Positions 4,407-9,500 of a DNA stretch of 11,334 nt are shown here, one piece after another (the stretch's first letter is position 1; every line of letters starts with the position of its first letter). The notes below the pieces were generated by a model. That model was given only the letters and a program-made list of their open reading frames with translations, was not told the DNA's origin and searched no databases. Location of the stretch: IMG/VR virus record IMGVR_UViG_2695420373_000009; one strand, written 5' to 3'. A program made the translations under genes and the position numbers. Source of the DNA: a virus (taxonomy: Duplodnaviria > Heunggongvirae > Uroviricota > Caudoviricetes).

Positions 4407-5010
4407 TTCGCGACTGCTGCCGACCGGCTCATCACCGCTTGAAGTCGCTGCTGCAAAAGCCTGTGCGGAAATTGAAAAAACGCCGGTCAGTATTCGTGAG
4501 CTGTGGAACCCGGACACCTGCCCGGCAAATCTGCTGCCGTGGCTGGCGTGGTCATTTTCGGTTGACCGCTGGGATGATAAGTGGCCGGAAGCGACAAAAC
4601 GCGCTGTTATCCGCGATGCGTATTTCATTCACTGCCATAAGGGCACTATAGGCGCAATCCGGCGTGTGGTGGAGCCGCTCGGCTATCTGATTGAGGTGAG
4701 GGAGTGGTGGCAACTCAATGAGGAGCCGGGGACGTTCCGTATCGTTGTTGGCGTGCTTGAGCAGGGTATTACCGAGGAAATGTATCAGGAGCTGGAGCGC
4801 CTCGTTGCTGATGCAAAACCGGCAAGCCGCCATCTGACGGGACTGGCTATCAGTTTAAGTACAACCGGCAACATTTTTGCCGGTGCGGGATGCTATCACG
4901 GCGACGCCCTGACAGTTTATCCCTACACCCCGGAGGCCATTATTGTCGGAGGGGATTATTTCCCGGCCTCGGCCATTCATTTAATTGATAACCTGAGAGT
5001 AAACGCATGA
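4399..5010 (+). CDS. I: Baseplate/tail-fibre attachment protein I, 203 aa
   Basis: ORF 4399..5010 with GGAGG RBS; N-terminus MSDSRLLPTGSSPLEVAAAK... recognised as gpI-type; stop overlaps the H start (ATGA at 5007-5010). Confidence 0.85.
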   Translation: MSDSRLLPTGSSPLEVAAAKACAEIEKTPVSIRELWNPDTCPANLLPWLAWSFSVDRWDDKWPEATKRAVIRDAYFIHCHKGTIGAIRRVVEPLGYLIEVREWWQLNEEPGTFRIVVGVLEQGITEEMYQELERLVADAKPASRHLTGLAISLSTTGNIFAGAGCYHGDALTVYPYTPEAIIVGGDYFPASAIHLIDNLRVNA

Positions 5011-6128
5011 CAGTGAAATACTACGCCATTCTGACTAATCAGGGCGCGGCACGGCTGGCTAACGCGACGATGCTCGGCAGTAAGCTGAATCTGACGCAAA
5101 TGGCCGTTGGTGATGCAAATGGTGTCTTGCCGACACCAGACCCGGCACAGACAAAACTGATTAACCAGAAACGCATCGCGCCGCTGAATCTTCTGAGTGT
5201 TGACCCGAACAACCAGAGCCAGATTATTGCGGAGCAAATCATCCCTGAGAACGAGGGCGGATTCTGGATCCGTGAGATTGGGCTTTATGATGATGAAGGC
5301 GTACTCATTGCGGTGGCGAACTGCCCGGAAACGTACAAACCGCAGTTGCAGGAAGGCAGCGGTCGTACCCAGACTATCCGCATGATTCTGGTTGTCACGA
5401 ATACCGAAGCTATCACGCTGAAAATCGACCCGTCGGTGGTACTGGCGACCCGTAAATACGTGGATGATGAAGTCCTGGAATTAAGGCTGTATGTGGATGA
5501 CCAGATGAGGAACCATATTGCCGCACAGGATCCTCATACCCAGTATGCACAGAAACATAATCCGACATTTACCGGAGAACCAAAAGCGCCGACGCCTGCC
5601 GCAGGAAATAACACCACGCGGATTGCGACCACTGAGTTTGTTCAGGCCGCTATTACCGCTCTGATTAACGGTGCGCCAGCCACGCTGGACACACTGAAAG
5701 AAATTGCCGCAGCCATTAACAATGACCCGAAATTCAGCACCACCATTAACAATGCGCTGTCAGGTAAGCAGCCACTGGATGAGACGCTGACTCATTTGAG
5801 TGGAAAGGATGTTGCCGGTCTTCTCGCATACCTTGGTTTTGGAGAAGGTGCTAACTGGGTTATGTTACCTGGAGGAATGATAATTCAGCGTGTTTATCTT
5901 GGATTTCCTGTTGGCACCAATGTAAGACACATAACTTTCCCCCGGTCGTTTACAACAACGAACTATTCCATCTCAATTAACTGGAATGATATCGGTACTG
6001 TAACAACTGAAACACAATCGCCAGCAAATGTGGCGGTTGTTCATCAAACAAAATCATTAACAGGGGCCAGCATCTGGCAGGCAGGTCCCGGGGGATTTAA
6101 TGTGGACATTATAGCGGTGGGGTATTGA
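5007..6128 (+). CDS. H: Tail fibre protein H, 373 aa: constant N-terminal part (5007-5834) fused in the present orientation to variable C-terminal cassette Sv (5835-6128)
   Basis: ORF 5007..6128; N-terminal region resembles P2 H / Mu S / P1 S constant domains and contains a tail-fibre repeat-like segment ([31 protein letters not shown]). A gix-like crossover site lies in frame at 5821-5846. Confidence 0.85.
5821..5846 (+). repeat. gix/hix-like 26-bp recombination site, left boundary of the invertible segment
   Basis: TTCTCGCATACC-TT-GGTTTTGGAGAA: two 12-bp imperfect inverted half-sites around a 2-bp core, matching the Din-family pattern (TTATCCAAAACC-NN-GGTTT...). Bases 5833-5850 form a 17/18 inverted repeat with 7573-7590. 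Confidence 0.7.
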
Positions 6129-6129
6129 T

Positions 6130-6558
6130 ATGTACGTATGGAGCGCTAAAGCAAATGGCTTTTTCCCCATATCGGAGAAAGAAAAATTTGAGGCATCAGG
6201 TCTGTGGCCTGATGATGGTGTAATAGTCAGTGAGGAAGAACATAAAAAGTTATTTATGGATATTCCACCAGGAAAACAGATTGGAACACTGAATGGAAAA
6301 CCAGCACTGATAGATATTCCTCAGCCGACCAAAAAGGAATTAATAGCTATTGCTGAAGTTAAAAAATCCCAATTACGGGAAAAAGCTGACAGTGAAATAT
6401 CCTGGCGTCAGGATGCTGTTGATGCTGATATCGCAACTGATGAAGAAACTTCAACTCTCACCGAATGGAAGAAATACCGTGTGCTGCTGATGCGTGTTGA
6501 TACTTCAACAGCACCCGATATTGAATGGCCTACGCCTCCGGCAGTTCAGGCCAGATGA
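6130..6558 (+). CDS. Tail fibre assembly protein (Tfa; P2 G / Mu U family), 142 aa
   Basis: ORF 6130..6558 starting 2 nt after the H stop; C-terminal motif ...[26 protein letters not shown] is typical of the Tfa family (compare lambda Tfa ...[22 protein letters not shown]). Confidence 0.8.
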
Positions 6559-7123
6559 CATCCGGCGCGGTGCTGGTATCTGTTGCCGTCACCGCGTCAA
6601 TGTAATCCAGCACGGCGTTAAGTCGGGTTGTTTCTGCCTGAGTCAGTTTCCGTCCGGCCTGTAATTTCAGCTGAATCAGACTAATGGAAGCCATTGCTGC
6701 ATCAATCAGTGACTGGCGCTGTGCTTCTGCTGCTTCTACTGCGGCGTTATGCTGTGCCTCAGTATCTGTCACCCATTTCTCACCATCCCATTTATCATAT
6801 GTCGTTAACGGTGAAAGCGTGACATAACCGTTTTTGATGGCACCGATATAATCCACTGTAACAGCTGCGCCATTTTCTGTTGAGTAAACAGTCTCATTGC
6901 GATGGTCTTCTTCATGGCTCCATCCCTTACCCGTGAATACTGCCACTTGCCCCGGAATGTATTCGCCCGGGTCAATACCAGTGGAACAGGCGGGCATACT
7001 TACGCCAGTATTAATATATTCATCAGACCAGCCCGTATATTCAGACGTTACTGCATCATAATAATAACAACGCATATCACCCGGCACTGTAGCCAGCCCA
7101 TTTTCATCAAAAACAGGTTTCAT
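6530..7123 (-). CDS. Alternative tail fibre assembly protein (Tfa'), 197 aa, partner of the Sv' cassette
   Basis: Minus-strand ORF 6530..7123; C-terminal ...[30 protein letters not shown] carries the same Tfa motif; its start overlaps the Sv' stop (TAATG on the minus strand). Confidence 0.8.
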
Positions 7124-7629
7124 TATGCAGCCCTCACAATATAATTAAAGGCGATGTTACGTGGACGGTTTTCATTAGCTGTTGGCACGACACGAGAGGC
7201 GTCGAATCCAAGGTCATCGGTTTTGCCTATAGCAGTTGTGTTATTCGCCATTGTCGCTGTTCGTGTTCCTGCATCGTAAAAAGCCCCTCTGATTGCATCA
7301 AAAGACATGCCGATCCCGCCATCTGCGAATCCCTCAATATTTCTTATTGCATCCCCCTGTGAAGATAATAATTGTCGCCCGGCATCTACACCACGCCCGT
7401 CATCCCAGCCACGAATAAATTCACCGCGTAAATCAGGCAATTTATTTGTCGGGTAAGCCTTTGCCAGTTCCGGGTATTCTTCAGCAGAAAAAGCCGCACC
7501 ATTGCATTTTAGCCAGCCTGTTGGCGGAGTGGAGGAAGGCCACGGGACAGGCACACCAACGGGTAATGCCGAACCTTCTCCCAAACCAACGTTTATAAAA
7601 ATGCAGAGATAACGGGCAACTGGCATCAT
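7123..7629 (-). CDS. Alternative tail-fibre C-terminal cassette Sv'; silent in this orientation, predicted to fuse to H after inversion
   Basis: Minus-strand ORF 7123..7629; the crossover site maps to its codons 14-19 (VGLGEG) in the same frame as in H; contains a tail-collar-like receptor-binding motif (PWPSSTPPTGWLKCNGAAFSAEEYPELAKAY). The first 13 codons lie outside the invertible segment and have no evident RBS. Confidence 0.7.
   Translation of the reverse strand: MMPVARYLCIFINVGLGEGSALPVGVPVPWPSSTPPTGWLKCNGAAFSAEEYPELAKAYPTNKLPDLRGEFIRGWDDGRGVDAGRQLLSSQGDAIRNIEGFADGGIGMSFDAIRGAFYDAGTRTATMANNTTAIGKTDDLGFDASRVVPTANENRPRNIAFNYIVRAA
7576..7601 (-). repeat. gix/hix-like 26-bp recombination site, right boundary of the invertible segment, inverted relative to 5821-5846
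   Basis: Plus strand TTCTCCCAAACC-AA-CGTTTATAAAAA; the inner half-site matches the reverse complement of the site-1 inner half at 11/12 positions; core AA is the complement of the site-1 core TT. Confidence 0.7.
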
Positions 7630-7656
7630 CTCCGGTTTTTATTCAGGGGGATGCTC

Positions 7657-8250
7657 ATGCTTATTGGCTATGTACGCGTGTCAACAAATGACCAGAACAC
7701 GGAATTGCAGCGTAACGCGCTGGAGTGCGCAGGATGCGAGCGGATTTTTGAGGATAAAATCAGCGGCACGAAGTCCGACCGACCGGGACTGAAAAAACTG
7801 CTCAGAACATTATCAGCAGGTGACACTCTGGTAGTCTGGAAGCTGGACAGGCTGGGGCGTAGTATGCGGCATCTGGTCATTCTGGTTGAGGAACTGCGCG
7901 AACGCGGCGTTAATTTTCGCAGTCTGACGGATGCTATTGATACCAGCACGCCGATGGGGCGTTTTTTCTTTCATGTGATGGGTGCCCTGGCTGAAATGGA
8001 GCGAGAACTCATTGTCGAGCGGACACGCGCCGGACTGGAAGCGGCCAGAGCCAAAGGTCGTATTGGTGGCAGACGTCCGAAACTCACCGCGAGTGAGTGG
8101 GAGCAGGTCGGACGGTTGCTGGCTGCGGGGGAATCTCGTCAACGTGTGGCGCTGATTTTTGATATTGGCCTGTCCACGCTCTATAAAAAATTCCCCTCAT
8201 CAGCGGCAAAGAATAAATTGTGTCATCCCTTAGCCAACCGGGACAAATAG
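7657..8250 (+). CDS. Site-specific DNA invertase, serine recombinase of the Gin/Hin/Cin/Pin (Din) family
   Basis: ORF 7651..8250; protein MLIGYVRVSTNDQNTELQRNALECAGCERIFEDKISG...GRFFFHVMGALAEMERELIVERTRAGLEAARAKGRIGGRRPKL... is near-collinear with recalled Mu Gin, including the catalytic Ser in YVRVS. Start placed at the ATG at 7657 (GGGGG at 7646-7650 gives better spacing than the ATG at 7651). Confidence 0.9.
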   Translation: MLIGYVRVSTNDQNTELQRNALECAGCERIFEDKISGTKSDRPGLKKLLRTLSAGDTLVVWKLDRLGRSMRHLVILVEELRERGVNFRSLTDAIDTSTPMGRFFFHVMGALAEMERELIVERTRAGLEAARAKGRIGGRRPKLTASEWEQVGRLLAAGESRQRVALIFDIGLSTLYKKFPSSAAKNKLCHPLANRDK

Positions 8251-8309: not shown

Positions 8310-9500
8310 ATGAGTGACTATCATCACGGCGTGCAGGTGCTGGAGATTAACGACGGCACCCGCGTCATTTCCACCGTATCCACGGCCATTGTCGGCATGG
8401 TCTGTACGGCCAGCGATGCGGATGCGGAAACCTTCCCCCTCAATAAACCGGTGCTGATTACCAATGTGCAGAGCGCAATTGCAAAGGCTGGTAAAAAAGG
8501 CACGCTGGCGGCATCGTTGCAGGCCATCGCTGACCAGTCAAAACCGGTCACCGTTGTTGTGCGTGTGGAAGACGGCACCGGCGACGACGAGGAAACGAAA
8601 CTCGCGCAGACCGTATCCAATATCATCGGCACCACCGACGAAAACGGTCAGTACACCGGACTGAAAGCCCTGCTGGCGGCGGAGTCGGTAACCGGTGTTA
8701 AACCGCGTATTCTCGGCGTGCCGGGGCTGGATACCAAAGAGGTGGCTGTTGCACTGGCATCAGTCTGTCAGAAGCTGCGCGCTTTCGGGTATATCAGCGC
8801 ATGGGGCTGTAAAACCATTTCCGAGGTGAAAGCCTACCGCCAGAATTTCAGCCAGCGTGAGCTGATGGTCATCTGGCCAGATTTCCTCGCATGGGATACG
8901 GTCACCAGTACCACCGCCACCGCGTATGCCACCGCCCGTGCGCTGGGTCTGCGCGCTAAAATCGACCAGGAGCAGGGCTGGCATAAAACGCTGTCCAATG
9001 TCGGGGTAAACGGTGTTACCGGCATCAGTGCCTCTGTATTCTGGGATTTGCAGGAGTCCGGCACCGATGCTGACCTGTTGAACGAGTCAGGTGTCACAAC
9101 GCTGATTCGCCGTGACGGTTTCCGATTCTGGGGTAACCGTACCTGCTCTGATGACCCGCTGTTCCTCTTTGAAAACTACACCCGCACCGCGCAGGTGCTG
9201 GCCGACACGATGGCTGAGGCGCACATGTGGGCGGTGGACAAGCCCATCACCGCAACGCTGATTCGCGACATCGTTGACGGCATCAATGCCAAATTCCGTG
9301 AGCTGAAAACAAACGGCTATATCGTGGATGGCTCATGCTGGTTCAGCGAAGAATCCAACGATGCGGAAACCCTCAAGGCCGGAAAACTGTATATCGACTA
9401 CGACTATACACCGGTGCCTCCTCTCGAAAACCTGACCCTGCGCCAGCGTATTACCGATAAATACCTGGCAAATCTGGTCACCTCGGTTAACAGCAATTAA
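8310..9500 (+). CDS. FI: Contractile tail sheath protein FI, 396 aa
   Basis: ORF 8310..9500 with GGAG RBS; length and sequence recognised as P2 FI-type sheath. Confidence 0.9.
   Translation: MSDYHHGVQVLEINDGTRVISTVSTAIVGMVCTASDADAETFPLNKPVLITNVQSAIAKAGKKGTLAASLQAIADQSKPVTVVVRVEDGTGDDEETKLAQTVSNIIGTTDENGQYTGLKALLAAESVTGVKPRILGVPGLDTKEVAVALASVCQKLRAFGYISAWGCKTISEVKAYRQNFSQRELMVIWPDFLAWDTVTSTTATAYATARALGLRAKIDQEQGWHKTLSNVGVNGVTGISASVFWDLQESGTDADLLNESGVTTLIRRDGFRFWGNRTCSDDPLFLFENYTRTAQVLADTMAEAHMWAVDKPITATLIRDIVDGINAKFRELKTNGYIVDGSCWFSEESNDAETLKAGKLYIDYDYTPVPPLENLTLRQRITDKYLANLVTSVNSN

Follow-up and report, generated by a model that had tools for sequence, protein, structure and literature searches.

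The DNA examined here, hereafter the window, is the whole 11,334-bp stretch filed in IMG/VR as virus IMGVR_UViG_2695420373_000009. At positions 5821 to 8250 it carries the 3′ part of the tail-fiber gene H, a second fiber tip on the opposite strand, two tail-fiber assembly chaperone genes and a gene for a serine DNA invertase, with two inverted 26-bp sites bracketing the tips and chaperones (Table 1). An earlier note, made from the letters alone, had described these same elements, i.e., a segment of roughly 1.75 kb between inverted 26-bp sites, carrying Sv-tfa on the plus strand and tfa′-Sv′ on the minus strand, with a Gin/Hin-family invertase directly downstream. Each of them was found as described, the content of the segment being borne out by Pfam matches to Caudo_TAP (twice), Collar and, weakly, Gp53-like_C.

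Table 1. Positions of the features of the locus in the window (aa, amino acids; ORF, open reading frame)
Feature	Positions	Strand	Description
H, tail-fiber gene	5007-6128	+	373 aa in present state; Pfam Phage_tail_fib 1e-62 over aa 1-150
Sc, constant part of H	5007-5832	+	276 codons; joined to whichever tip adjoins the left site
Left 26-bp site	5821-5846		TTCTCGCATACC-TT-GGTTTTGGAGAA; core 5833-5834; inside H; encodes ..LAYLGFGEG..
Invertible segment	5833-7589		1757 bp, core dinucleotide to core dinucleotide
Tip 1 (Sv)	5835-6128	+	C-terminal 97 aa of H, read with H in the present orientation; gp53-like C-terminal domain
tfa, tail-fiber assembly chaperone paired with tip 1	6130-6558	+	142 aa; Pfam Caudo_TAP 1e-33
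tfa′, chaperone paired with tip 2	6530-7123	-	197 aa; Pfam Caudo_TAP 5e-28
Tip 2 (Sv′)	7123-7587	-	silent alternative C-terminus, about 154 aa; ORF 7123-7629; Pfam Collar 1e-15
Right 26-bp site	7576-7601		TTCTCCCAAACC-AA-CGTTTATAAAAA; core 7588-7589; inside silent tip ORF 7123-7629 (-)
Serine DNA invertase, Din family	7657-8250	+	intact, 197 aa (199 aa from an alternative ATG at 7651); Pfam Resolvase 8e-53 and HTH_7 5.5e-13
Putative Fis recombinational enhancer equivalent	7675-7746		inside 5′ end of invertase gene; 56/72 identical to P1 cin nucleotides 19-90
pF activator-binding-site equivalent	8213-8241	+	P2 annotation 17555-17583 maps here, 19/29 identical

Invertase, crossover sites and fiber tips

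The invertase is a small serine recombinase with a C-terminal helix-turn-helix, and the nucleophile Ser9 is present in the motif MLIGYVRVS9. It aligned end to end with Mu Gin, with E values of about 1e-94 against the structures 3UJ3 and 4M6F (2.3e-94 for 3UJ3, over residues 1 to 184), whereas resolvases matched it far less well, at roughly 1e-33. Against proteins translated from annotated reference records, it was 86% identical to PinE of E. coli K-12, 79% to Mu Gin and 78% to P1 Cin, which bears out its assignment to the Din family. Invertases that depend on Fis and an enhancer, but not resolvases, conserve Hin K47, K/R48 and K/R51 in helix B together with Q151, R154 and L155 in helix 1 of the DNA-binding domain (PMC3798978). 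These enhancer-dependence residues are all found in the window invertase: R42, K46, K47 and R50 are the equivalents of Hin R43, K47, R48 and K51, and its EQVGRLL (patch EQxGRLL) and helix-B basic residues align with EQAGRLL and KRALK of Gin, as well as with Cin. The putative enhancer was located through the P1 record, which annotates that of Cin at nucleotides 19 to 90 of cin. Two candidate Fis cores of 15 bp each, 48 bp apart (7679-7693 and 7727-7741), were read by hand from the window, and the enhancer is treated as putative because it consists of coding sequence and hand-matched Fis consensus sites are unreliable.

Both crossover sites have the 12-2-12 layout of Din-family sites and lie in inverted orientation with the same core dinucleotide, AA being TT on the other strand. 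A repeat finder returned one long inverted pair in the window, 5830-5849 with 7573-7592. When the half-site TTCTCCCAAACC was searched for with at most two mismatches, three of the four half-sites matched and nothing else in the window did (0.86 matches expected by chance); at least three matches arose in 13 of 200 shuffles. The half-sites resemble those of e14, P1 cix and Mu gix. The TT/AA core is that of e14 and cix, the core of gix being TC/GA. The left site is identical to the left site of the complete genome GF8, where an exact natural inversion breaks, and the right site is 1 nucleotide apart from the K-12 e14 site TTCTCCCAAACCAACGTTTATGAAAA. From the end of the right site to the invertase ATG there are 55 bp, a spacing identical in Mu and e14. 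The arrangement is not due to chance, since natural inversions in near-identical DNA break exactly at these sites (see below).

Tip 1 matched Pfam Gp53-like_C with an E value of 1.7e-4 and 22.5 bits, under the cut-off of 24.9, and its homologues, at 95 to 100% identity, are from E. coli only, some of them with a precomputed PF21882 match. A tblastn search with tip 1 of 50,697 phage records gave no match, which marks it as prophage-only so far and is uninformative as to function. In a sequence search of the PDB with H and tip 1, only the shaft region was matched, and no solved structure for tip 1 came up. Judged by these searches, tip 1 is uncharacterized yet not an unseen sequence. Its commonest database form is a 111-aa ORF that is silent in the flipped state (P0001, 543 member sequences), and it was also observed on Mu-like tails (L024, L025) and e14-like tails (L005). 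Tip 2 is 60% identical to K-12 StfE, about 70% to the C-terminus of HK97 Stf and 95% to phage SKA5, and is related to the collar regions of T4 gp37 and gp12; in RefSeq the corresponding ORF bears the label 'incomplete, missing N-terminus'. The chaperone gene tfa encodes a protein 100% identical to Tfa of the e14-like element of strain CDF6, and the product of tfa′ is 63% identical to K-12 TfaE. On these matches tip 2 and tfa′ are members of the widespread collar-domain Stf/Tfa family. The suggestion in the earlier note that the tip sequences may be new did not hold, as both occur at 95 to 100% identity in many E. coli assemblies.

The two chaperone genes are convergent and overlap by 29 bp at their 3′ ends (6530-6558). 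From opposite strands, both encode a similar C-terminal ...DTSTAPD(I/V).WP... motif. A 3′ overlap of the same length is present in tfaP/tfaE of K-12 e14, and U and U′ of Mu have none.

Natural occurrence of both orientations

When 5833-7589 was inverted in silico, the 276 codons of Sc became fused in frame to tip 2, giving a 430-aa H′ whose stop overlaps the ATG of tfa′ (TAATG), with tfa′ directly next. Each of the alternative C-termini, followed by its own Caudo_TAP gene, can thus be read in frame with the constant part outside the segment, as in Din-type switches (H, 373 aa; H′, 430 aa). An exact-sequence look-up found the 430-aa H′ verbatim in NCBI, in E. coli (WP_053881279.1/CTT53360.1), and the present 373-aa H was found too. 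An exact look-up of tfa′ led to two contigs. One is CYFO01000056.1 (11,334 bp) of the E. coli assembly GCA_001283745.1, of which the window is the entire sequence (100% identity over 7594 bp of the locus); the contig probably ends at repeats that further P2-like prophages of the same genome also contain. The other, CYAK01000055.1 (hereafter L028) of a second E. coli assembly, GCA_001283925.1, has the same prophage with flipped gene order, which confirms the existence of the inverted orientation proposed earlier. Compared with the window flipped in silico, L028 showed 3 mismatches in 7594 bp, at 8384, 8393 and 8405, all of them in FI and none in the switch. Its recombined sites are as predicted for exchange at the core dinucleotide, the left site reading ...GGTTTGGGAGAA after inversion exactly as in L028.

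Other assemblies agree. Contigs L027, L031 and L033 are also flipped, and over 9382 bp the complete genomes GF8 and GF75 differ in nothing but the stretch enclosed by these same sites, which is exactly reverse-complemented. Two further loci, L011 and L014, both encode the exact window invertase and have flanks that are 100% and 99.9% identical around an inverted 1873-bp middle. Among 5426 complete E. coli genomes, 18 matched the present arrangement and 25 the flipped one at a coverage of at least 80%. The segment therefore occurs in both orientations in nature, across separate assemblies.

Taken together, the locus has an intact invertase, properly oriented sites, in-frame alternative fusions each with its own chaperone, both natural states and breakpoints at the core dinucleotide. 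We are highly confident that 5821-8250 is an active Din-type (Pin/Gin/Cin/Hin) inversion switch in the tail-fiber region of a P2-like E. coli prophage, at the Z/fun position. Since public assemblies already contain this prophage in either orientation, as near-identical copies, and the kind of switch is known, the finding is real but ordinary.

A related arrangement was noted in locus L004 (E. coli elppa4, NZ_CP083512.1), where the same two cassettes are 97% identical and flipped, H is longer (504 aa), and an additional stretch of about 640 bp (5816-6458 of L004), containing a further minus-strand ORF, lies between the right site and the invertase. A third cassette may be present here, or the locus may be a shufflon-like variant with multiple sites, comparable to the four-state locus of enteropathogenic E. 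coli (EPEC) described below.

Proposed mechanism and alternative readings

By analogy with the family, dimers of the invertase would bind the two sites and assemble with host Fis at the enhancer in the 5′ end of the invertase gene. Exchange at the central dinucleotides, which inverts 5833-7589, would proceed on both strands through a Ser9 phosphoserine intermediate, with subunit rotation. In the present orientation Sc is fused to the gp53-like tip 1, followed by tfa, and in the inverted orientation to the collar tip 2, in frame and followed by tfa′. With transcription arriving from the P2 late operon upstream, the Sc-adjacent cassette alone would be expressed; a crude sigma-70 promoter scan found no promoter inside the segment, which fits expression from that operon only. 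If, as is assumed, the two tips bind different receptors, a lysogen population would release virions of two host ranges.

Several points count against this account. The right site has a degenerate outer half, with 7 of 12 positions matching, and the window has A at 7597 (right-site position 22, TATAAAAA), where e14, GF8, EPEC and most relatives have G. The same crude promoter scan found none upstream of the invertase gene. The enhancer and its binding of Fis are proposed from homology, in a stretch where conservation is confounded by coding constraint; the difference in receptors between the tips is an assumption by analogy; and the two orientations come from separate assemblies rather than from one culture of the source isolate. 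Some of these points would suit a fossil or locked switch, in which the architecture has been kept while inversion of this copy has become negligibly rare, for example owing to the degenerate half-site or to a silent invertase gene, and the orientation differences are old. It would also suit such a reading that the three close long contigs L010, L015 and L018 (99.2 to 99.4% identical) are all in the window orientation, and that the A variant was in none of the complete E. coli genomes searched, in either orientation, all of which have G. We nonetheless hold a locked switch to be very unlikely. The A at 7597 is confined to this phage lineage (the window, L010, L015, L018, L027, L028 and L031), in which both orientations are represented; it does not block inversion, since the flipped L027, L028 and L031 carry the same A, and as a lock it is ruled out. 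T/A at that half-site position is moreover found in functional gix half-sites, and no key residue is missing from the intact invertase ORF. None of the three mismatches between L028 and the flipped window lies in or near the switch, which makes the inversion younger than almost any point mutation.

Less probable still is that the orientation differences are artefacts of assembly, the repeat having been resolved arbitrarily. CYFO01000056.1 and L028 are indeed short draft contigs, of 11.3 and 10.8 kb, but closed complete genomes show the same exact inversion (GF8/GF75; strains 613 and 774 versus 571), the breakpoints coincide exactly with the central dinucleotide in sites of the Din type, and an inversion verified by polymerase chain reaction (PCR) has been published for homologous loci. 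The inverted repeats, of about 20 to 26 bp, are also under typical assembly k-mers and so cannot cause an arbitrary flip. We give the least weight of all, as next to negligible, to a resolvase or integrase with another function beside a coincidental inverted repeat. In its favor, Pfam and NCBIfam place the protein only in the general resolvase/serine recombinase superfamily; when the invertase, H, tip 2 and the two Tfa proteins were compared with NCBIfam, no model reached its cut-off, a result that is uninformative. The identities of 78 to 86% to the four classical invertases, set against E values of roughly 1e-33 to resolvases, speak against this reading, as do the invertase-specific residues and the match of the sites to those of cix and e14. 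The in-frame fusion and the observed natural inversions likewise speak against coincidence.

An active inversion switch accounts for the RefSeq description of one tail-fiber ORF as 'partial, missing N-terminus', for H proteins of different length in near-identical prophages, and for the invertase that often sits in the Z/fun hotspot of P2-like phages. Any host-range prediction, or engineering of P2-type particles, from this prophage should consider both fiber variants. Beyond correct annotation, the significance of the switch is small.

The P2-type backbone and comparison with known inversion systems

According to Pfam and to the RefSeq annotation of a 97%-identical E. coli locus (L001), the window is a P2-type late region with lysis genes, R, S, V, W, J, I and H, followed by FI, FII, E and the start of T. 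The tail-module order V-W-J-I-H ... FI-FII-E-T, with pF upstream of FI, is that of P2-like phages (Peduoviridae), and Pfam matches in the backbone include Baseplate_J, Tail_P2_I, Phage_tail_fib, sheath and Phage_tube. The neighbors of the switch are I and J upstream and the FI sheath (from 8310) and FII tube genes downstream, with only 59 bp between the invertase stop and the FI ATG. On the left, identity to an Escherichia phage P2 record reaches 98% over 5000-5759. Near-identity to such records stops at about 5759 and identity to the e14-like module begins at 5822; between these limits, immediately before the left site, is a mosaic linker of its own, of roughly 60 bp (5760-5821). On the right, identity to P2 is exact from 8230 onward, and the pF-site equivalent falls within the last 13 codons of the invertase ORF, which extend past the end of PinE into the P2 backbone. 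The stretch 8213-8250 reads as the place where, on the right, the inserted module has recombined with the backbone, and might couple late-activator binding with the 3′ end of the invertase gene.

The earlier note had given the canonical P2 order as H-G-Z/fun-FI, and in the P2 record fun(Z), which is on the other strand, does immediately precede the pF promoter and FI. The window shares with P2 its gene order and, at 97 to 98% nucleotide identity, its backbone, including the pF promoter and the FI start. P2 differs in having a fixed H and G and then fun(Z), where the window has a 2.4-kb switch module in place of the H 3′ end, G and Z/fun. The H protein of P2 is 669 aa long. According to a 2024 preprint (bioRxiv 10.1101/2024.10.15.618418), a DNA invertase is frequently present at the Z/fun hotspot of P2-like phages, together with inversion of the neighboring genes, and tail-fiber, tail-fiber assembly and DNA invertase genes are annotated in phage records such as that of Escherichia phage pro483 under a partial match (63% of the query). 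In EPEC E2348/69, Goldberg et al. 2014 (PMC4272514) used PCR and paired-end sequencing to show that both orientations coexist, namely in e14 and in two P2-like prophages. The two reports uphold the view taken beforehand that the mechanism is not new and is found in P2-like prophages.

Both P2-like EPEC E2348/69 loci share the layout of the window locus, lying between tail-fiber genes and FI (L022) or adjoining tail genes (L023). They too have a collar tip, a gp53-like tip, two Caudo_TAP genes and similar sites (TTCTCCCAAACCAACGTTTAAGAAAA). Their invertases, however, are 80 to 81% identical to that of the window and their tips differ in sequence; one locus has three repeats and four states, and the other is a truncated remnant. 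In L023, and likewise in L020 (E. coli APEC37), the same type of switch was seen in another P2-family backbone, in which the tail-protein and tape-measure genes that follow the invertase are on the opposite strand. As that backbone differs, the module is not tied to the H-FI junction.

Judged on sequence, the nearest relative of the locus is the e14 Pin/P-segment system rather than Mu Gin. K-12 e14 (pinE, stfP-tfaP/tfaE-stfE) has the same order of Sc, site, tip-tfa, tfa′-tip′, site, 55 bp and invertase, a segment of about 1.8 kb, the TT/AA core, the 29-bp tfa overlap and the most similar reference invertase (86%). An e14-like/Mu-like prophage of strain CDF6 shares window positions 5822-8117 at 94% nucleotide identity. 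Unlike the window, with its complete P2-type contractile-tail module and a Sc that is the N-terminus of P2 H, e14 is a defective element; in addition, tip 1 of the window has no BLAST-detectable similarity to the StfP tip, and the C-terminus of its invertase is 13 aa longer than that of PinE, reading into the P2 pF promoter. Because CDF6 shares 5822-8117 and tip 1 sits on Mu-like tails, the sites, cassettes and invertase together behave like a portable module. Speculatively, this 2.3-kb unit might be a self-contained host-range module that moves among P2-like, Mu-like and e14-like tails, and tip 1 might recognize a receptor that no characterized coliphage uses, although we consider this improbable.

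P1 Cin and its C segment share with the window a 78%-identical invertase and the TT/AA core of cix; the annotated cin enhancer aligns with the window at 56 of 72 positions, and the constant region of P1 S contains a repeat, 61 to 73% identical, that is also present in H at aa 184 to 266. The C segment is longer (4.26 kb), cin occupies the opposite side of it with respect to the fiber gene, and the phage backbone is another one. The Fis-dependent serine invertase of Mu is 79% identical to that of the window; Mu also has the arrangement Sc-Sv-U / U′-Sv′ with the invertase 55 bp past the right site, and it switches host range via alternative fiber tips, as the window prophage would. In contrast, its G segment measures 3.06 kb, its gix core is TC/GA, and its tips and U chaperones are much larger, similarity between U and Tfa being restricted to the C-terminal part of U (43% over 63 aa). 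The earlier designation of the switch as one of Mu G-segment type consequently stands for its working mode but not for its membership: with a TT/AA rather than a TC/GA core, a segment of 1.76 kb rather than about 3 kb, and PinE nearer than Gin, the locus belongs to the e14/Pin branch.

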